Positions 8,665-28,839 of a stretch of 28,839 bases of DNA are shown piece by piece. Each line of letters starts with the position of its first letter. The stretch's first letter is position 1. Origin of the DNA: Candidatus Krumholzibacteriia bacterium (lineage in GTDB: Bacteria > Krumholzibacteriota > Krumholzibacteriia > WVZY01); assembly GCA_036478295.1 (NCBI GenBank), contig JAZGDW010000065.1, positions 1-28,839 of the forward strand. The letters run 5' to 3'. Both the position numbers and the translations under genes were made by a program. The notes under the pieces are model-generated. The model ran no database searches. It saw only the letters and a list, made by a program, of their open reading frames with translations, and was not told the origin of the DNA.

Positions 8665-8703
8665 ATCGCGGGTCCTGTCAGCGAACAGCGCGACCGTGCT
8701 CGC
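8665..8703 (+). repeat. Short dispersed repeat family 2, copy A
   Basis: GGTCCTGTCAGCGAACA-N6-CCGTGCTCGC; the reverse complement occurs at 12936-12968. Confidence 0.85.
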
Positions 8704-8860
8704 TAAAGCTGCGCGCGGCCGCTACGTCCACCCGCTGCCACTCATACCGCGGCGCGAGGTGACCGGTAGCGCCGGATCCGTCAACCGGAAAAGCGTTGGT
8801 CGCGCGGCGTTTCTTCTGTATATTCATCGGATATTTTGGCGTATGCACGGGGGGAAACAC

Positions 8861-9535: not shown

Positions 9536-9709
9536 GCTGGCTGCGATGGCGAGGGGGGGCTCATGCTCAGACAGTCCTGGGGCGCACGAGCCTCATCCTC
9601 GTAGACACGGTTAGCGCGCCTGCGCACTGCTCCGCAGCATTTCGCTCATTGTGGCCAGCTGTCAGTGCTCAAGAACTCGCCTGAGCCCCCCCTCGCCATC
9701 GCAGCCAGC
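9536..9709 (-). repeat. Dispersed structured element family 1, copy 1 (126-bp core in a perfect 28-bp inverted repeat)
   Basis: Arms 9536-9563 and 9682-9709 are exact reverse complements. Core 9560-9685 is the reverse-complement homologue of 19634-19759. Confidence 0.93.
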
Positions 9710-10428: not shown

Positions 10429-10503
10429 GGGGGCTTAACTCAGCGGGAGAGTGCTACCTTCACACGGTAGAAGTCACTGGTTCAAATCCAGTAGTCCCCA
10501 CCA
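10429..10503 (+). tRNA. tRNA-Val (anticodon CAC)
   Basis: Acceptor stem GGGGGCT/AGTCCCC, anticodon arm CTACC-TTCACAC-GGTAG, T-arm ACTGG-TTCAAAT-CCAGT, encoded CCA. Confidence 0.97.
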
Positions 10504-12877: not shown

Positions 12878-12935
12878 GAAGGCTCTCGTTCGTGAATCTC
12901 AGAATCCGGTGGGGGCACCTGGCCGTGCGCCGCTG

Positions 12936-12975
12936 GCGAGCACGGGCGGGGTGTTCGCTGACAGGACCTGCCGAT
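12936..12975 (-). repeat. Short dispersed repeat family 2, copy B
   Basis: GCGAGCACGG-N6-TGTTCGCTGACAGGACC on +, the reverse complement of 8671-8703. Confidence 0.85.
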
Positions 12976-12992: not shown

Positions 12993-15900
12993 CTATTGTA
13001 ATCTATCGTAGTCACGCAAGCGCGCATAAAGGGTCGGTTTCGATATGCCCAGCATGGCCGCCGCACGGCCTTTGCCGTCCACATGCGACACCATGCGCCT
13101 CGCCAACAGAGCTTCCAGCACCGGCAGCAGCGGCTTCGATTCCGAATAATTGCCCAAAGCGATTATCTGGTCGACGAGCTCGTCCAGTCGCCGGCTGGTG
13201 TGGCGGCCGGTCCCCATGACCTCTTTCAGGAAATCGTCAGGCAGTGATGACGATGTGATCAGATTGTCGTCGGACAGCACGATGACACGCTCCAGCACGT
13301 TTTGCAACTCTCGGACGTTTCCGCCCCAGGTCGCCTTCTGAAAGAGCTGGATTGCCTCCGGTGACAGCGTCTTGGGCGGTATGCCCTTTTCCGCGCAGCT
13401 CTTTTTTACATAATCGAGCGCGATCGCTAGCATGTCCTCCTTGCGTTCACGCAGCGGCGGCAGATCGATCAGGATGACCTTCAGTCGGTAGTACAGGTCC
13501 AGACGAAATTTGCCTTGCTTGCAGAGTTCCTCGAGGTCTTCGTTGCTCGCCGCAACGATGCGAACATCCGCCGTCAACCTCTGGTTGCCACCTAGCCGCA
13601 TGAAGCTTTTGCCATCGATGAAATGGAGAAGCTTGGTCTGTGTTTCGATCGGCATCACATTGATATCGTCGAGAAACAACGTGCCCCCGTCCGCCATTTC
13701 GCACAAGCCCAGTTTGCGCCGTACGGCTCCCGTGAACGACCCGCGTTCGTGGCCGAACAACTCGCTCTCGAGCAGATCATGGGGAATCTGCGCGCAGTGG
13801 ATTTCCTGAAACCGCTTCTTGTGCCGGGGGCTTTTGTAATGAATCGCGCGCGCTAGGACGGACTTGCCGGTGCCGCTCTCCCCCAGGATAAGGATACCGG
13901 AATCGGTGTTCTTGACTTTTTCCAACAGGCGGAAAATGTCCTTCATTGCTTCACTCTTGCCGATCAAACTCTCGAAACGAAACTTGACCTGCTCGTCATC
14001 CTGCATCTCGTCATCCTGAATCTCGAGTATCTCGCCCTTGAGGAACTGCTCGTTCAGGTGGAGCATCAGTTTCAGGCTGCCCGCTACCTGCCGCCCGAGC
14101 CACGTAAAGAAGTTGACGTTCTCTTTGGAAAGGGGGAGGCGATTCTTTTCCAGGTAGAACAAGAGGCATCCGAGGTCTTCGCTCATGGCTTTGAGCGGAA
14201 TACAGAGAAAGCCTTGTCCTTCCGGCGGGTCGAGGTCCGGTACCACATCGGAAAGATCCTGGGAATGACTGTCGACGAGTCCGCCGAGCAGGAGCGTGCG
14301 TCGGAAAAGAGCGTCGGTGCTTCTGGGCAGTGCGGCGCTGCGCTCTCCCGTGCTTCCAAATACGCGAAACTGGTTGCTGTCTGTCCTGAGCGCGAGGTAA
14401 CAGTCGGTGGGATCGACAACGCGCCTGGCCGCGTCCATGACCCGGCGGATGAATTCCCTGTGGTCGGTGGCGTAGTCGGTCAACGCGCTCAGCTCGTAGA
14501 AAGCCATCAGTAGCTCCTGCGATTCCTTGCCGCCGATCGGGGTTCGCGCCGGGTGGGCCCTGAGGACGTGCTGGAGCTTCACGAATTCCTCGGGCAGCTC
14601 GCGCCCGATGTCCGCGCGGATGAAGTCCTGTGCGCGGTCGAGATAGTGCCGCGCTTCGAGGTCATTCCCCGTTTGCGCGTGGATAAGCCCGATCTTCGCG
14701 AGTACCGTGGCCGCGAGCCTGTATTTCGAGAGCGCCGTGTATTGGGTGGACGCCCGTTCGTAGTGCTTGAGCGCCTCCACCTGCCGGTTTTGCTCACGTT
14801 CGAGGTCCCCGAAGATAACTTCGATCTGGGCGTTCTCGTATTTCGATCCGATTCGTTGGACCAGTTCGAACGCGGCGTCCGCAAATTCCTTTGCCTCTTC
14901 GAACCGCTTCTGCTTGAGGCACATCGCAGAGAGACGACGCAGCGCGCCCATCTCCTCGTTGATCGCCTGCCGCTCGTGCGAGACGTTCAGAGACACGCGG
15001 TAGTGTTGTTCCGCCGCTTCAAAATCCCCGTCCTCGAGCGCGATATCACCGAGCGTGGCGTAGTTGTCGGCGGCCAGCGGCGCGTTTTCGAGCGCTTCGC
15101 TGATGGCGAGGCTCTCCCGGCACTTGGCTTCCGCTTCCTTAAAATTGCGGCCTTCGAGATAGAGAAGCGCCAGGTTGAGGTAACCACCGGCGATTCCCGC
15201 CTGGTTGTTCTGGCGGCGCTTGAGCTCCAGACTGCGGTTGTAGTAATCCAGGGCCTTTTCGTATTCACCTTTGCTCTGATAGGCGAGGGCGAGGTTGTTG
15301 AAACTCGCCGCCAGCGAGTTGTCGTCGCCTGACCGCTCGCGTAGGTAAGCGCTCTGCTCGTAATAGGAAATCGCTTCGTCGTAACGGCTCGTGTTGAAGT
15401 GAACCACACCCATCAGGTTCAACGCCTGCGCGACGATCATTGGGTACTGGGTGGCGCTGAGCGTGTTCAAACTCAACCTGGATGATTCCATCGACATGTC
15501 ATAGTCACCGAGCCGGTACTGCAGCCATCCGATATCGTTCAGCAGTTGGGCCTGTTCCGGTATGGGCAGTGCCGAACGCAGGTCGTCTCGCGCTGTTTCC
15601 AGGAGGTCCAGCGCCTGTTTGAATTCGCCGCGTGCCTCCCACCGGTCGGCCAGTAGACGGTAGGTCCCGCTGAGTCGCGGCGCATTCTTCAGCTTGACGT
15701 CTTCTTCCGCCTCGTCGATGAGGTCTCTCGATTCGAGCAGCAGGCGTTCGGCATCCGCGGCGCTCCCCTTTTGCAGCAGGTCCAGGGCGAGTTCGTAATG
15801 GGCCAGCACCTGGTCCGCGAACGGAAGGCTCTCCAGGATCCGTTTGCCCGCCAGCCCGATGCACAACGAGACGACCGCGGGATTGCGCCTCTCGCTCTTC

Positions 15901-17618
15901 GTATCGCGCAGGTACGCGAGCGCATGCCGGGCGGAAAGATCGTTGTCCCCCGACCACAGGGCGTGAAGCAGCAGGAAAAAGTTGGGGAAGAAACGCTCGC
16001 GTTCACCGATCAGAATGACGGTGCGGTGGAGCTTCTTGCGCCGGGACTTCGGAATGCTGCCGTAAATGAGGTGCCGGAGCGCGACACTTTCGATGCGAAC
16101 GAAGAGCGATATGGAGCTCTTGCGCGGCAGTTTTCGATACGACAATTCTACGCTGCCGAGGGCAACGAGCCGGAGTATGGCGGCCCCGATGGTCTCGTTG
16201 GATTCCGAAAACACGGACATGACCAGATCAAGTGGCATCGCGAACCTCGCCACGGCAATGAACTCGAGAAGCTGCCGCTCCTCGGTTCGGAGCCGCTCGA
16301 GGCAGGCCTTGATCAGTTCCCCGGGCGGGTCGGTGTCGCACGGTTTCCCGCCGAGGTCGCGTAGCGTCTTACAGAGGTATCCCGCCAGTCGACCCGTTTC
16401 ATCCTGGGCGCTGTGCCCCTCGAGATCGATTTCGAGATACCCGTCCGCACTTTTTCGCCTGAGCTTATCCAGGAACTCGCTCAGCTCCTGCACTAAGCCG
16501 TTCGAGCGAACGCCGAGAATCACAGAGTCCCCGCTCGCGGCGGATGAATCGAGCAGTGCGGTCGAAAAATCAGAACTGGCGAACTCTCTCTCATCGATGT
16601 CATCGATGACCCACACGCGGTGGGACGGGGACTTTCCCTCAGCCGCCGATCGCTTGCGCCGGGCGGCAAAAAGGTCCCATTCGTCCATTACGGTTACCGA
16701 GCAAGCTTCCGAGCGCTGAAGCCGAACGGCGGCTCTCTGGAGAATACGGCTCTTGCCGGTGTAGGAATCCCCCTTGACCACGACGACGCTGCCGCTCACC
16801 CTGGCGCGCTCGACCACCTGGTTTACACAGTCCTTTATAGCAGGGCTTTCGTCTGCCCACCGGCGTGTGTCGGCCCTTTGCAACGGGCGCTGGAATAGCT
16901 GCTCGTACGCACCCCCAAGTGTCGTGACTTTGCCCGCCGCGATTGCCCCCGCGGTTTCCTGCAGCCGCCTGCAAAACGGGGGCAGGCCGAGATCGTCGAA
17001 TGGGGCATCGTCGGTGCGAGCGCTGATCTGACGAATCAGTCTCTCGAGGAGCGACAGGTGAATCGTCTCGCCTTCGGATTGTAGAAGCGGCGTCCGCAGC
17101 CGGGTCCCCGGGATGCCGGGGCGTGCCTGCACGGATGAGGATGCACCCCCGCCCGGCAGAGGTGGAATCACATAGGCGACGGGAAGCATCACGGCGCCCC
17201 CGGTCTCATTTATGGCGAATGCTCCCGGAAAAAGATCACTCACGTAGAAGTCATAGTCTTCGAAACGAGACAGGGTCCGTATCAGCGGATCAAACAACGT
17301 CTCCAGCTGACTCGCGTTGTCTGCTGACGCCGGCACGGGTTTGAAATAGTCCGTCAAGAACTCGATGCGGCCGCCCTCGACCGTCAGCGACAGAAGGGGG
17401 GGGCAGAATTCCGGGGCTATCGCCGCGGCCGCATCCGCGCGAAACCTCAGGACGCTGGGCAGAAAATCGGTGAGGGCCTTGGACTTGATGCTGAAACGTA
17501 GAAATGTTCGCTCGCTCACCAAATCGACCAGAGGGGTGAGACGCCAGGCGCCAGCCAGCCACGAGTCCCCAGTGGGTTCGAGGTTTTGCTGGTATGAATG
17601 AGAAGGGTGGAACGCCAT
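12993..17618 (-). CDS. Multidomain sigma54-dependent Fis-family activator (degenerate kinase-like N-terminus, P-loop NTPase, TPRs, GAF, AAA+, HTH)
   Basis: GDSYTGKS and VWVIDDID; multiple TPRs (ALNLMGVVH, SFNNLALAY); GESGTGKS, ESELFGHERGSFTGA, FRLDLYYRL, WGGNVREL; C-terminal AAAMLGISKPTLYARL. Confidence 0.92.
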   Translation of the reverse strand: MAFHPSHSYQQNLEPTGDSWLAGAWRLTPLVDLVSERTFLRFSIKSKALTDFLPSVLRFRADAAAAIAPEFCPPLLSLTVEGGRIEFLTDYFKPVPASADNASQLETLFDPLIRTLSRFEDYDFYVSDLFPGAFAINETGGAVMLPVAYVIPPLPGGGASSSVQARPGIPGTRLRTPLLQSEGETIHLSLLERLIRQISARTDDAPFDDLGLPPFCRRLQETAGAIAAGKVTTLGGAYEQLFQRPLQRADTRRWADESPAIKDCVNQVVERARVSGSVVVVKGDSYTGKSRILQRAAVRLQRSEACSVTVMDEWDLFAARRKRSAAEGKSPSHRVWVIDDIDEREFASSDFSTALLDSSAASGDSVILGVRSNGLVQELSEFLDKLRRKSADGYLEIDLEGHSAQDETGRLAGYLCKTLRDLGGKPCDTDPPGELIKACLERLRTEERQLLEFIAVARFAMPLDLVMSVFSESNETIGAAILRLVALGSVELSYRKLPRKSSISLFVRIESVALRHLIYGSIPKSRRKKLHRTVILIGERERFFPNFFLLLHALWSGDNDLSARHALAYLRDTKSERRNPAVVSLCIGLAGKRILESLPFADQVLAHYELALDLLQKGSAADAERLLLESRDLIDEAEEDVKLKNAPRLSGTYRLLADRWEARGEFKQALDLLETARDDLRSALPIPEQAQLLNDIGWLQYRLGDYDMSMESSRLSLNTLSATQYPMIVAQALNLMGVVHFNTSRYDEAISYYEQSAYLRERSGDDNSLAASFNNLALAYQSKGEYEKALDYYNRSLELKRRQNNQAGIAGGYLNLALLYLEGRNFKEAEAKCRESLAISEALENAPLAADNYATLGDIALEDGDFEAAEQHYRVSLNVSHERQAINEEMGALRRLSAMCLKQKRFEEAKEFADAAFELVQRIGSKYENAQIEVIFGDLEREQNRQVEALKHYERASTQYTALSKYRLAATVLAKIGLIHAQTGNDLEARHYLDRAQDFIRADIGRELPEEFVKLQHVLRAHPARTPIGGKESQELLMAFYELSALTDYATDHREFIRRVMDAARRVVDPTDCYLALRTDSNQFRVFGSTGERSAALPRSTDALFRRTLLLGGLVDSHSQDLSDVVPDLDPPEGQGFLCIPLKAMSEDLGCLLFYLEKNRLPLSKENVNFFTWLGRQVAGSLKLMLHLNEQFLKGEILEIQDDEMQDDEQVKFRFESLIGKSEAMKDIFRLLEKVKNTDSGILILGESGTGKSVLARAIHYKSPRHKKRFQEIHCAQIPHDLLESELFGHERGSFTGAVRRKLGLCEMADGGTLFLDDINVMPIETQTKLLHFIDGKSFMRLGGNQRLTADVRIVAASNEDLEELCKQGKFRLDLYYRLKVILIDLPPLRERKEDMLAIALDYVKKSCAEKGIPPKTLSPEAIQLFQKATWGGNVRELQNVLERVIVLSDDNLITSSSLPDDFLKEVMGTGRHTSRRLDELVDQIIALGNYSESKPLLPVLEALLARRMVSHVDGKGRAAAMLGISKPTLYARLRDYDRLQ

Positions 17619-18661: not shown

Positions 18662-19591
18662 ATGAAAACTGAACACGCAAATGGCCTGGTCTTGCGTGTT
18701 ACTGGCCACGAATTGTGGGTGGACGTGGACGGCGAAATGGTTGTGTGTCTGCTAAGGGGACGTTTCCGCCAGAAAGGCCAGAACCTGCACGTCGTTGCCG
18801 GCGATCGCGTGCAGATCTACACGCACGGCTCTGCTGGTGGACCGGCGGCGATCGAAGGTCTGCTGCCACGGAAATCCTGGCTGTCCCGGCATGTCGGCGG
18901 ACGCCACGAGTCGGAACGGGTCATTGTGGCCAACGTCGACCTTCTTGTCCTGGTGGCGTCCCTTTGGTCGCCGCGACTCAGCCATCGTTTTGTCGACCGT
19001 GTTCTGGTATCTGCCGAAAGGGGCTTCACCAAGGCCGTTATCTGTTTGAACAAGATCGACAAGATGAAGTCGGGTCAAGACGTGGAGGCGTTCGTGAGCC
19101 TTTACGAGGGAATTGGGTACCCGGTCGTCCGTACTAGCGCCAAGACGGGCGAAGGGATCGAGCGGGTTGAAGCGCTGCTGCAGGGTGGCGTGTATGCGTT
19201 CGTCGGCCAGTCGGGCGTGGGTAAGAGCTCGCTGCTGAATCGGATCGACCCGAGTCTCGAGCTCAAAGTCAGGGATGTGGCTCGCAAGACGGGGCGAGGT
19301 CGTCATACGACCTCCTACTCTCAGCTCTACCCGATCAAGGGTGGATTCATGGTCGATACTCCGGGCATGCAAACCTTCGGGTTTCCCGGCACGGACAAGG
19401 GGGAGTTGTCGGCGTGTTTCCCCGAGTTCCGCGAGTTCGAGTCAGAATGTCATTACCAGTCGTGCACGCATTCGCACGAGCCGAAGTGCGCGGTGAAAAA
19501 AGCGCTGGAGAACAGCCGTATCGCACCCTCGCGCTTTGTGAGCTACGAGGACATGCTGGCCGAGATCGAGGCTCGAACGAAGCGACGCTGA
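18662..19591 (+). CDS. rsgA: Ribosome small subunit-dependent GTPase A
   Basis: OB-fold N-terminus, permuted NKID / GQSGVGKSS / GRHTT / DTPG motifs, zinc finger CHYQSCTHSHEPKC. Confidence 0.95.
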   Translation: MKTEHANGLVLRVTGHELWVDVDGEMVVCLLRGRFRQKGQNLHVVAGDRVQIYTHGSAGGPAAIEGLLPRKSWLSRHVGGRHESERVIVANVDLLVLVASLWSPRLSHRFVDRVLVSAERGFTKAVICLNKIDKMKSGQDVEAFVSLYEGIGYPVVRTSAKTGEGIERVEALLQGGVYAFVGQSGVGKSSLLNRIDPSLELKVRDVARKTGRGRHTTSYSQLYPIKGGFMVDTPGMQTFGFPGTDKGELSACFPEFREFESECHYQSCTHSHEPKCAVKKALENSRIAPSRFVSYEDMLAEIEARTKRR

Positions 19592-19612
19592 ATCTGCGTC
19601 CGCGGACACTGG

Positions 19613-19780
19613 GGGTGCGGCAGGATGGGTGTTCTCAGGCGAGTTCTTGAGCACTGACAGCTGGCCACAATGAGCGAAATGCTGCGGAGCAGTGCGCAGG
19701 CGCGCGACCGGGAATCTACGAGCACAAAGCTCGTGCGCCGAGGACTGTTTGAGCATGAGAGCACCCATCCTGCCACACCC
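19613..19780 (+). repeat. Dispersed structured element family 1, copy 2 (126-bp core in a 25-bp inverted repeat)
   Basis: Arms 19613-19637 and 19756-19780 pair at 23 of 25 positions. The first 72 bp of the core are identical to the reverse complement of 9614-9685. Confidence 0.93.
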
Positions 19781-25555: not shown

Positions 25556-27265
25556 TTAGCTGACTTCCTCACTGATCCGTTGGAGATTTTTCTTCGCTTT
25601 ATCGTTGCCGGGATCGATCTCCAATGCTTTAGACCAGGCCTTCTGGGCCTCATCGATTTTGCCCATCTTGTAGTAGGCGTTGCCGAGGTTCGTGTACGCA
25701 GAGGTGTTGTCTGTGCTGCGGCCCAAGGCCTCGTTATACATCTCTACGGCCTGATCGTAATGTCCCCGCTTAAAAAAGATGTACCCCAGGTTGTTGTAGG
25801 CGGCGTGTAACGACGGGCTGAGCTCAACCGCTCGCTTGAACGCGTTGCTCGCGTTGCTGTCATCATCGAGTTCGGTATAGGCCAGCCCGAGGTTGTTGTA
25901 CGCTTCGGCGAATTCGGAATCGACCTTCACCGCTTCGAGAAACTGATCCCGTGCCATCTCGTACGCCCCGTTGTGAAAACTCGTCACCCCGAGATTGTTG
26001 AACTTCTTGGCGTCCTTCTTGGCGTGGCGAACCTGCTCGGTCTCACGGTGTTTCTTTCCCTCCTCCATGTATCCCAGCATCTCTTCCTGGTACTCTGCGA
26101 TGCTGTCCATGCGGGTTTCCCAACTCTTTTGCTGACGCTGGATATCCTTGACTGTGGAGGAAATCGCGTCTTGCGAGGAAGTGACCCGCTTTTCCATTTC
26201 CTCCTGGGCTTTGAGGGTTGATTCCAGCTGACCCTTCAGGTTGGCGGTCGGCGCCGAGTTGTGTTTCGAATAGTGCTCGAGTTGTCTGGAAATGTCCTCG
26301 GTATGTGCCTGAAGCTTGTTGAAATTTTGGCGCAGGTCCAGGACGATCTCCGACACCTTGGTGGTAAAGCCTTCGACGCTGCCCTCCTGTTTTTCGATCT
26401 TCCTTTGCAGGGCGTCGAGCTTGAGCGTGATTTCCTCGCTCCCGTTCTTGTCCGGTTTGGGCATCGACTCGATTGTTTTCTGCAGGGCGTCGAGCTTTCG
26501 TGCCATTTCCTCGTTCACGCTTGTGTCCGGTTTGGGCATCGAGTCGATCTTCTTCTGCAAGACCTCGATCTGTCTTGCGACCTCAGTGTCGGATGACTTG
26601 CCGTCGGCCTTAGGGCTAGAGTCGATCTTTTCTTGCAGGGCATCCAGCTTGCGCATCATTTCCTCGTGAGCGGCGCTGTTGTCGGGTTTCGACATTGAAT
26701 CGATCTTCTCTTGCAAGGCCTCGATCTGTCTTGCGACCTCGGCGCCGGATGACTTGCCGTCGGCCTTGGGCATCGAGTCGATTTTTTTCTCGAGGTCCTT
26801 TTTGAGCTCTTCCAACACCTTGGATTGGCTTTTCTCCGATTCTGCGAAGCTCTTGATCAGCTCGGACACGCTCTGGGTTTGAAACTTCCAGATCTTGTCG
26901 ATGTCCTTCGCGAGGGTCCCGGAGACTTCCTTCGACAGGTCCGCGGATGAGGCCTGGGATGTTTTGGAGGTCTTGGCCGGTTTGTCCAGCATCGAAAAGA
27001 TCAGGTCGAACTGGCAGTCGCCGGTCTTGGTCTTGTAGAAGCGACACGACTCCTTGATGCACAGGAGGTGTGAGGGAATGTCCTTCTTGGACGTTTTCTT
27101 GGCTTTGGTCGAAGTCGCAGCAGGGGCTTCCTTTCCTTCTTCGTAGCCCAGGATGACGATGTTTTCCTCATCGCTCGATTTGGAGCTGGGCGGGCTCTCA
27201 TCGATAATGAGCGTGCTCGCGTTGTCGTCTCCCAGCATATGGGATATAAAAGGACAGATTTTCAT
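25556..27265 (-). CDS. TPR protein with Cys-containing N-terminus and repetitive coiled-coil
   Basis: ATG 27265 behind GGGAGG. Four C-terminal TPRs (FNNLGVTSF, AYNNLGLAY, AYNNLGYIF, AYTNLGNAY). Confidence 0.88.
   Translation of the reverse strand: MKICPFISHMLGDDNASTLIIDESPPSSKSSDEENIVILGYEEGKEAPAATSTKAKKTSKKDIPSHLLCIKESCRFYKTKTGDCQFDLIFSMLDKPAKTSKTSQASSADLSKEVSGTLAKDIDKIWKFQTQSVSELIKSFAESEKSQSKVLEELKKDLEKKIDSMPKADGKSSGAEVARQIEALQEKIDSMSKPDNSAAHEEMMRKLDALQEKIDSSPKADGKSSDTEVARQIEVLQKKIDSMPKPDTSVNEEMARKLDALQKTIESMPKPDKNGSEEITLKLDALQRKIEKQEGSVEGFTTKVSEIVLDLRQNFNKLQAHTEDISRQLEHYSKHNSAPTANLKGQLESTLKAQEEMEKRVTSSQDAISSTVKDIQRQQKSWETRMDSIAEYQEEMLGYMEEGKKHRETEQVRHAKKDAKKFNNLGVTSFHNGAYEMARDQFLEAVKVDSEFAEAYNNLGLAYTELDDDSNASNAFKRAVELSPSLHAAYNNLGYIFFKRGHYDQAVEMYNEALGRSTDNTSAYTNLGNAYYKMGKIDEAQKAWSKALEIDPGNDKAKKNLQRISEEVS
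26395..26790 (-). repeat. Five coding tandem repeats of about 25-26 aa
   Basis: Units of the form KIDSMPK(A/P)D...E(V/M)AR(Q/K)(I/L)(E/D)ALQ. Confidence 0.85.
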
Positions 27266-27296: not shown

Positions 27297-28839
27297 TCAT
27301 AATGATGTGACCTTTTCAAGCACCGGCGCTTCTCCGGCCATTTCTTTGAGATATTTTTCGTAATTCCGTTTTGCCATTTCTTCGATTTCCTCGAAATCGG
27401 GCTCCTCACTCATGATTCTCAGGTACACGCTATGTGCGGCATCAAAGCGGTTCAGCTTCTGGTAGCATTGGGCGGTGCGGAGCAGGTAGTTTCTCCGCTC
27501 CTCCTTGCTCAGGGCCGCCAGCGGAATGGCCTTGAGGATGACGAGGGCCGCCAGCGGTTGGTCTTTCTCCATGTAGTAGGCGGCGAGACAAAGCTTACGT
27601 TTGATTTCCTGTCCGACATTCTCCGGTATGAACTTGAGGAGCTGCTTGGCTTCATCGTATCTTCCCAGGACCATTGCCCGCTCGATCAGGCGCAGGGTTT
27701 CCACGGCGTGGAGCCTGCCCGCTTCGAAACGGGCGTAGAGGGAATCGAAATCCTCTCCGGGTTCATCTCCCAGTGTTATCTCGCGCTCTTTTTGTGGCGG
27801 TGGGGGAACGACCGTTTCCGGCGGCTCCGACTCCTCCGGTGGTGGAGGAATGAGTGTTTCCGGCGACTCTGGCTCCTCCGGCGGCGGGGTAACGACCGTT
27901 TCCGGCGGCTCCGGCTCTTCGGGTGCCACCGGTGCCTCGGCGTCCTCCCGCTCAACCGGTGGCGAATCACCAGCCGCCGCAGGTTCTTCCGCAGTTGCCA
28001 GAGTGTCCACCGTTTGGTCCCGCTCGCCGTCCCCGGCCTCGCGCGATTGATCCTGCTCGCCAGCCGGTTCCTGCGGCTGCTCGGGTGGCGTCGCCATCGG
28101 GTCCTGGCCCGGGGGGGTCATGCCCGCTACTTCCGGTGAGGCCGACGGAGCACCTGCGCCGTGGGTGTCCAGCGTAAAGTCGCGCCCGCCGAAATGTTCG
28201 ATTTCAAAACCACCGGTCGTGGGTTCGACCTCGGGTCTCAGGTGACTGACGTCGTCGTAGAACTTCTGGACTGCGGGCTCGTCCCGGTGACGGTCGAGGA
28301 TGCTGGTGATCACCCTCGCGTCCTCGGGAGACTGCGCAACGACTTCACGAAAGATGTCGACGGCCCTTTCGAAGCGCCCCTGTTCGAGTGTCAGTTCGGC
28401 GTAGAAGCTGAGGAGATCGACGGGCAGAAACTTCTCCTGCGACTTCGTGTCCAGCCACGAGAGCAGATCGTCCCGCAGCCGTCTGTCCCGGGCGATCTTC
28501 TTGATGTGAAGTAGAGCAGCCTCGTTCTTGTTCGTGCTAAGCGCCGCTTCGATGAAGACGTAGTCGAGTACGAGGCTTTCGCGGCTCTCCTGCAAGTAAG
28601 GTTTGAGGAGGTCGATAATGACCGGTGCTTTGGACGCGTTCTTCTCCATCACGGCGGCGAAGCGTTCGGCGGCGCAGAAATCGTCTCCCTTGACGATGTA
28701 CAGGCGAGCCAGGCTGATGTTGAGTTCCTCTTGCGGGACCGCTACCCGGTCCTTGACCGCCTCTAGCCGCGCTATGGCGTCTTCAGCCATGGAAGGCGTG
28801 AGTGCCGCCCCCTGGCACAGCTTGGGAAATGCTTTGACG
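27297..28839 (-). CDS. Large TPR-like helical protein with acidic Pro-rich linker (5' end outside the window)
   Basis: The frame stays open from 28790 to the window edge. TPR-like helices flank a P/E-rich low-complexity region. Confidence 0.8.
   Translation of the reverse strand, partial: VKAFPKLCQGAALTPSMAEDAIARLEAVKDRVAVPQEELNISLARLYIVKGDDFCAAERFAAVMEKNASKAPVIIDLLKPYLQESRESLVLDYVFIEAALSTNKNEAALLHIKKIARDRRLRDDLLSWLDTKSQEKFLPVDLLSFYAELTLEQGRFERAVDIFREVVAQSPEDARVITSILDRHRDEPAVQKFYDDVSHLRPEVEPTTGGFEIEHFGGRDFTLDTHGAGAPSASPEVAGMTPPGQDPMATPPEQPQEPAGEQDQSREAGDGERDQTVDTLATAEEPAAAGDSPPVEREDAEAPVAPEEPEPPETVVTPPPEEPESPETLIPPPPEESEPPETVVPPPPQKEREITLGDEPGEDFDSLYARFEAGRLHAVETLRLIERAMVLGRYDEAKQLLKFIPENVGQEIKRKLCLAAYYMEKDQPLAALVILKAIPLAALSKEERRNYLLRTAQCYQKLNRFDAAHSVYLRIMSEEPDFEEIEEMAKRNYEKYLKEMAGEAPVLEKVTSL
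27795..27922 (-). repeat. Three 42-bp coding tandem repeats (PEEPEPPETVVTPP-like)
   Basis: Equivalent positions at 27807, 27849 and 27891 give an exact 42-bp period. Confidence 0.85.

Follow-up and report, generated by a model that had tools for sequence, protein, structure and literature searches.

The window analysed here, a 28,839-nt contig (C279) of the Candidatus Krumholzibacteriia assembly G000 (3.5 Mb, 316 contigs, 91% complete), contains two copies of a nearly constant sequence, each of them enclosed in long self-complementary arms that differ from one copy to the other. Which kind of element keeps its centre and changes its ends is the question that this locus raises. The initial annotation had aligned the core at 9560-9685 with the reverse complement of 19634-19759, and both segments are indeed homologous (90.6% over 128 columns), including a stretch of 72 bp, at 9614-9685, that is the same in both copies. 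The inverted repeat of copy 1 is also perfect over 28 bp, as had been described. That of copy 2 was found in its place with arms of 25 bp, but these contain two mismatches. The coordinates of all these parts are given in Table 1.

Table 1. Positions of the two element copies and their parts in the window, and of the members of the MITE-like subfamily in other contigs and loci
Feature	Position	Strand	Remark
Copy 1, long form	9536..9709	.	Absent in strain X1
Copy 1 left arm, 28 bp	9536..9563	+	9539-9545 is the inverted copy of 9700-9706, retained in the empty allele
Copy 1 strand A of the conserved core	9565..9580	+	Here GCTCAGACAGTCCTGG; family form GCTCARACAGTCCTCG
Copy 1 variable inner hairpin region	9581..9619	+	
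Copy 1 strand B, first part (CTGCG)	9620..9624	+	
Copy 1 optional 48-bp insert interrupting strand B	9625..9672	+	Only in G000 and G001; minus strand with a GC-GGA-GC minihairpin
Copy 1 strand B, second part GAACTCGC	9673..9680	+	
Copy 1 right arm, 28 bp	9682..9709	+	9700-9709 also in the empty allele
Copy 2, long form	19613..19780	.	Strand A on the minus strand
Copy 2 B-side arm, 25 bp	19613..19637	+	
Copy 2 48-bp insert	19647..19694	-	Identical to the copy 1 insert
Copy 2 strand A	19739..19754	-	
Copy 2 A-side arm, 25 bp	19756..19780	-	Two mismatches to the B-side arm
MITE-like subfamily members	C30:32273-32479, C253:5995-6252, C316:7210-7416 (G000); L014, L020, L035, L042		

Copy 1 occupies the entire gap between the stop codons of two convergent genes, one nth-like (endonuclease III-like) and the other encoding a GNAT protein, and copy 2 is flanked by rsgA on one side and by a gene for a family-9 glycosyltransferase on the other. 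The element is strongly structured (folding z of -7.9 and -8.6 against 200 shuffles), and both of its strands fold far more stably than shuffled sequences. Scanning of copy 1 for promoters and terminators gave neither, and no U-tail terminator was present. By eye, some inserts of the family contain a TATAAT-like hexamer, which stands just 13 nt from a TTGAGC box. Elsewhere in the window there are a tRNA gene (10429-10500), a coding array with a 12-bp period in a 116-aa ORF without Pfam match (1793-2168), coding repeats of 75-78 bp and of 42 bp in TPR proteins (26394-26823 and 27796-27925), and a gene for a 1541-aa protein (12993-17618) in which TPRs, a GAF-like region and a sigma-54 activator domain were recognised by eye.

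The two window copies belong to a larger family. Of the complete copies in G000, 17 in all, 9 are of the long and 8 of the short form; inspection by eye added two that are degenerate and three that are halves. The unit is not the 126-bp core in two copies, as had been taken; the conserved part is a motif of two strands, A and B. The expectation that other copies would also have flanking inverted repeats, and that these would not be the same in all of them, was borne out, since 17 of the 17 complete copies are closed by an outer stem (approximately 22-29 bp) and each stem is specific to its copy. Long and short forms are distinguished by a precise insert of 48 bp that splits the second conserved block; 48 of the 72 bases that are identical between the window copies (9625-9672) correspond to this optional insert, missing from the short form. 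When the phylum was searched (201 genomes), only G000 and G001 had exact matches to an insert motif. Other matches with one mismatch (four that were inspected and one in G001) were discarded as chance matches in coding DNA.

The arms of the two window copies are only 48% alike. The initial description of arms that share only their innermost bases needs correction: across the members of the family the arms are related and co-vary. For the 14 copies of the main type, the similarity of the inner 11 bp of the arms was 0.80, against 0.30 for composition shuffles, and that of the distal 15 bp was 0.45, against 0.34 (0 of 200 shuffles reached either value), while the flanks gave 0.30 for both real and shuffled sequences. 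As judged from these alignments, the arms are homologous between loci, strongly in their inner part and weakly in their distal part. In three G000 copies the insert is 95-100% identical, yet the arms are 48% and the inner hairpins 51-63% similar. Because inserts are nearly identical where arms and hairpins differ, the 72-bp identity is best read as a putative recent conversion of a patch.

Beyond the genus, the conserved unit consists of strand A, GCTCARACAGTCCTCG, and strand B, CTGCGGAACTCGC, the latter with variants. Exact strand A was found in 24 of the 201 genomes of the phylum, with 0-17 exact matches among the family members, and its reversed control in none of the 201. In the GTDB genomes it was present in at least 129 stretches, although some chance matches of a 16-mer are to be expected in so large a collection; the titles among the matches listed include Proteobacteria, Actinomycetota, Patescibacteria, Planctomycetota, Nitrospirota, Spirochaetota, Bacillota, Omnitrophota, Gemmatimonadota and others. 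Five genomes of Adlercreutzia, cultured gut Actinomycetota, contain 26-40 exact matches each. The B partner accompanies strand A in 161 of 185 distinct contexts and is missing from 24. The two strands appear in both possible circular orders: in 96 of the 185 contexts A, hairpin and B follow each other inside the closing stem, as in the window, and in 65 the order is B, hairpin and A. Nested and stacked forms also occur. Searches of a plasmid collection with two blastn queries and a first pattern search of metagenomes gave no match, and among viral contigs the motif was present in only one.

Copies of the element are also combined with other repeats. Three of them lie within an additional outer repeat of constant sequence, and fusions to repeats of other families are found among the half copies. 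The enclosed copies belong to a MITE-like subfamily, with the element inside a constant outer inverted repeat, CCTTRATCCGTCA, common to families of the class; by eye, some members have 4-bp flanks resembling duplications. A second repeat family, whose core begins with GGGTCCTGTCAGCGAA, has 23 exact-pattern matches in the genome, many with short copy-specific closing arms, and two degenerate copies in the window (8668-8760 and 12900-12971). A third module, GGCTCYGTCAMCAA, has 31 matches (contigs C75, C76, C77, C114, C224 and C241 of G000, and others) and forms tandem mosaics at gene ends; half copies of the element are joined to it. The stand-alone GIY-YIG gene of C114 has one such mosaic at its 3' end.

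No gene was found that could be linked to the movement of the motif, and the suggestion that a copy might stand beside a RAYT, a reverse transcriptase or an IS110 gene was not confirmed. The Y1/RAYT family (PF01797) gave no match in 11 genomes (G000, G001, G003, G011, G023, G086, G202, G203, G205, G207 and G208), most of which are incomplete, in a search whose control matched in 6 of 14. Reverse transcriptases were not detected in G000, G011 and G086, and the motif is not found near the two loci that encode them in G207 and G208. IS110 was likewise not detected in G000, and IS110 loci elsewhere lack the motif. A DUF772-type transposase was not found in 10 genomes, and the IS91/Y2 profile gave no match, its control likewise matching nowhere. 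Ten GIY-YIG loci of five motif-rich genomes (G000, G011, G203, G207 and G208) are not flanked by the motif, and the stand-alone GIY-YIG gene of G000 adjoins a different repeat family; around the GIY-YIG, reverse transcriptase and IS110 loci the motif was absent over about 1.5 kb.

Of 136 ORFs chosen among the neighbours of the element, 121 were compared with Pfam at an E-value of 1e-10, the other 15 being already recognised or overlapping repeats, and gave varied housekeeping genes with no recurring transposase or nuclease family; at this cut-off the IS4 of locus L106 was missed, and small or distant enzymes could escape. Clustering of 846 ORFs from 189 loci did not yield any recurring mobile-element protein either. 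The IS4 located between two copies in L106 was considered as a mover and rejected, as it is a passenger with its own terminal inverted repeats. Inverted pairs of the betaproteobacterial form flank either IS4 or an AT-rich orphan gene in L106 and L107 (Sulfuricella) and in L109 (Gallionellales), which indicates that doublets can enclose cargo.

The strand on which the element folds was studied in 120 outer helices with a score of at least 20, namely all 17 of G000 and, from elsewhere, 66 of 79 plus 37 of 65. G·T mismatches were on A', the strand opposite A, in 104 cases and on A in 49, and G·A mismatches in 80 and 23, respectively, these counts and those of the loops containing related, non-independent sequences. 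G000 alone gave 10 mismatches on A' and 2 on A. Short terminal loops of the GNA type (triloops) are formed by A' in 82 of 114 contexts and by A in only 1 of 114. According to PMC13037366, GCGNAGC minihairpins are exceptionally stable as DNA and far less so as RNA, the RNA melting figure in that source referring to a four-base loop.

In addition, among 41 distinct copies of the Coriobacteriia type, 18 outer-helix pairs and 8 of 11 inner-helix pairs change on both sides, with a covariation score that 0 of 500 shuffles reached. For the covariation, the outer pairs (columns 1-22) and the inner helix were used; the predicted pairs of the core never vary and so provide no covariation evidence. One G·T pair is retained in 39 of the 41 copies, and 48 of 68 copies keep A·G as their 16th pair. 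The asymmetry between strands, the loops, the covariation and the kept non-canonical pairs together suggest that selection maintains the shape of the stems on a single strand, most probably in the form of single-stranded DNA.

Nevertheless, the strong covariation and the conserved G·T and A·G pairs suit RNA equally, and only the type of loop and the orientation favour DNA. A structured RNA, released from a closing stem of freely variable sequence, had been put forward from the beginning, and such a module (an mRNA stabiliser, a processing signal or a small ribozyme) could have been copied around the genome. The stems do vary, both circular orders are present, as in the circularly permuted hammerhead, twister and hairpin ribozymes, and copies are situated at gene ends and inside operons. 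At the hisA-hisF junction of Adlercreutzia, moreover, the orientation is single and A' is always the mRNA strand. In the wider sample there is no fixed orientation to transcription: A' was on the mRNA for only 16 of the 49 genes with the motif downstream (75 ORFs were used for orientation, 67 confirmed by Pfam and 8 judged). The GNA triloop is a motif of the DNA type, and copy 1 ends in no terminator of the U-tail kind. Rfam, at gathering and E-value thresholds, recognised only tRNA in the window and, for copy 1, miRNA-hairpin noise far below the cut-off; the core, which the initial annotation had not recognised as a named family, matched none, nor did any of 20 + 20 other loci at the cut-off. 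With the loops and the orientation on the side of single-stranded DNA, an RNA module is quite unlikely. Resemblances to the hammerhead, the hairpin ribozyme and the k-turn were rejected by eye against their consensus, the core not giving the pairings of the first two.

The behaviour of the element between close strains was followed in a marine-sediment DNA run, X1, containing a strain 96-98% identical in the flanks, with one assembled contig per site (alignment tables). Copy 1 is missing from a 3181-nt contig of this strain, which joins 9538 to 9700 through six other letters, CCCGAC. The empty allele is not palindromic and still has the right arm's outermost 10 bp; in the filled allele, CCCGAC is replaced by an inverted copy of the kept bases that ends at a 3-bp microhomology. 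The difference between both alleles would correspond to the pattern of a template switch. No target-site duplication was evident at copy 1. Allowing one mismatch, the six letters agree with 7 of 16 arms and with 1 of 16 flanks, although 692 of 2000 arm shuffles equal that result; the empty allele, arm-like in composition, may be the remnant of an older copy.

At the site of copy 2 one X1 contig leads from 19591 to 19780, reads back along 86 nt to 19695 and goes onward from 19756. With matching depth, it leads from rsgA into one arm and the A half in reverse, stops exactly at the start of the insert and continues with the other arm, and on this alignment copy 2 of X1 is a flipped short form. 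The X1 alleles may reflect either gain or loss. In runs X3, X4 and X5 no joint was seen at either site. In G001 the copy-2 site is a short spacer that lacks the element, and no nucleotide-level orthologue of the copy-1 junction was found in this genome. Presence and orientation thus vary between close strains, and the proposal of a non-autonomous mobile element is supported.

Both persistence and change were observed in Adlercreutzia. The hisA-hisF junction was found in 15 of the 16 species searched, and all 15 have the element there, with arm and hairpin types in differing combinations and with half copies stacked upstream. Of 12 cases at a second junction, 9 were filled and 2 degenerate; the remaining one was empty, its flanks being 97% identical, and there loss is as likely as gain.

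These alleles bear on the alternatives in which the arms belong to the site. If only the core were mobile, it would insert into, or be exchanged within, palindromes owned by the site, and the initial annotation had suggested insertion into the centre of palindromes or terminators. The copy-2 site of X1, where a different short core lies reversed and the arms on its two sides both align to one and the same arm, would fit this explanation, and so would the homogenised inserts in copies with unlike arms. However, the site of copy 1 has neither a palindrome in its empty allele nor anything like a terminator, and 0 arm-like palindromes with a spacer of up to 30 nt and no core were found in G000. 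The homology of the arms between loci and the replacement of the arms, too, at one Adlercreutzia site make mobility of the core alone very unlikely.

It has also been considered that the arms are made afresh in each insertion by inverted duplication of the host flank. The outer 10 bp of the copy-1 right arm, present in the empty allele and copied in inverted form on the left of the filled one up to the microhomology, would be the trace of such an event. At copy 1 this part of the earlier proposal can account for no more than the outermost 7-10 bp, with uncertain polarity, and not for the remaining arm: the 10 bp in common could have been left by an older copy, the inner arms are conserved family sequence and the distal ones weakly homologous, and the Coriobacteriia arms lie inside a longer element and retain non-canonical pairs. 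As a general origin of the arms, this duplication is highly improbable. Equally improbable is a host-selected chromosomal signal on single-stranded DNA (for priming, replication restart or protein loading, like ssi/primosome assembly sites) spread by gene conversion alone, because, although GNA minihairpins are known from the single-strand initiation sites of phages and plasmids (PMC13037366) and the lack of a transposase link and the long persistence at one site across a genus would agree with it, the distribution is patchy in the phylum, copies are lost and flipped between strains, and the motif is present in unrelated phyla.

The element is, in our opinion, probably a non-autonomous and dispersed REP/REPIN-like repeat acting as folded single-stranded DNA, whose stems are co-edited by template switching and by overwriting from copy to copy. 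The A' strand would fold as a rod: an outer stem of about 22-29 bp, then a conserved irregular internal loop, contributed by A' (CGAGGACTGTYTGAGC) together with B' (GCGAGTTCCGCAG), and lastly the inner hairpin. As a fixed sequence would be needed only in the internal loop, either end could be closed, giving the two circular orders, and the stems would need only to pair. A trans-acting, structure-specific enzyme of single-stranded DNA would recognise this loop and seed copies at gene ends, often on older copies. Resident copies, in which a mosaic of arm, hairpin and insert modules is observed, would be overwritten in patches by others. Template switching at the hairpin, the pattern of which was observed in one strain (X1), would copy changes from arm to arm, and could lengthen the stem by a few bases of the adjoining host DNA and invert the core; it has been reported to homogenise the arms of inverted repeats and to invert spacers (PMC8604942, PMC8794818). 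The perfection produced by template switching would not be the sole force on the arms, because G·T and A·G pairs are conserved in them. Seeding, patch overwriting and template switching would together produce a nearly constant core inside copy-specific self-complementary arms.

A bolder form of this reading, which we consider unlikely, is that the A'/B' loop is the recognition or catalytic core of undescribed pan-bacterial selfish single-stranded DNA elements which move outside the HUH-Y1, IS110, DDE and reverse-transcriptase routes. The chemistry would then be performed by an unrecognised host-encoded enzyme or by active folded DNA, either a natural deoxyribozyme or a self-priming structure, and the presence of both circular orders with free stems would have the look of a catalytic or tightly recognised core.

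These data define a compact and testable two-strand motif for repeats of many phyla, cultured gut Actinomycetota included, and their turnover at strain level was seen without any of the usual movers. They also advise caution in RNA discovery, since strong stem covariation is found here alongside loops of DNA type and no fixed orientation to transcription. No description of the element was found in the literature, exact motifs included, in a search that motifs given solely in figures or supplements would escape.

Comparison with known repeats reveals partial similarities. With the MITEs ERIC, Correia/NEMIS, RUP and bcr1 (PMC3733652) the element shares a size class of 70-300 bp, terminal inverted repeats, strong secondary structure and a position beside coding sequences; however, its termini are not constant, its arms end in different sequences and copy 1 has no target duplication. 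The mutation of quasi-palindromes by template switching, as described in PMC8604942 and PMC8794818, includes the arm homogenisation, stem extension and spacer inversion seen in X1, but it is a mutational process which accounts for neither the dispersal nor the conserved non-canonical pairs.

The closest likenesses are with repeats read as single-stranded DNA. Like the REP, REPIN and BIME sequences (PMC3733652), the element is a short, gene-less, intergenic palindromic repeat at gene ends, multi-copy, arranged as singles, inverted doublets and mosaics, and its hairpins are probable substrates as single-stranded DNA. REPIN-like inverted doublets about 187-192 bp apart, with a short central palindrome between them, were observed in Adlercreutzia (L326, L327 and L338-L342). 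According to the same source, REP stems have 6-13 bp, are constant in each family and carry a GTAG or CGTC tag, whereas those of the element have 22-29 bp, are copy-specific and co-vary. No constant tag of the GTAG/CGTC type was found in the A'-strand flanks of 11 G000 copies, what stays constant is instead the two-strand motif inside, present in both circular orders, and Y1 is missing from the 11 genomes searched. The NTS/SRM repeats, associated with the Ssn GIY-YIG nucleases of single-stranded DNA (PMC11893778), likewise contain a strand-specific hairpin read as single-stranded DNA and extend over many phyla, but the element has neither their CGTC-type motif nor, in the five motif-rich genomes, a flanked GIY-YIG gene. 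The mover of the element, if found, could be a new structure-specific enzyme of single-stranded DNA, as in the case of the CGTC-type repeats and Ssn. Although the tag, the RAYT and the flanked GIY-YIG gene that define these systems do not accompany it, the element works like the REP/REPIN and CGTC/NTS repeats.
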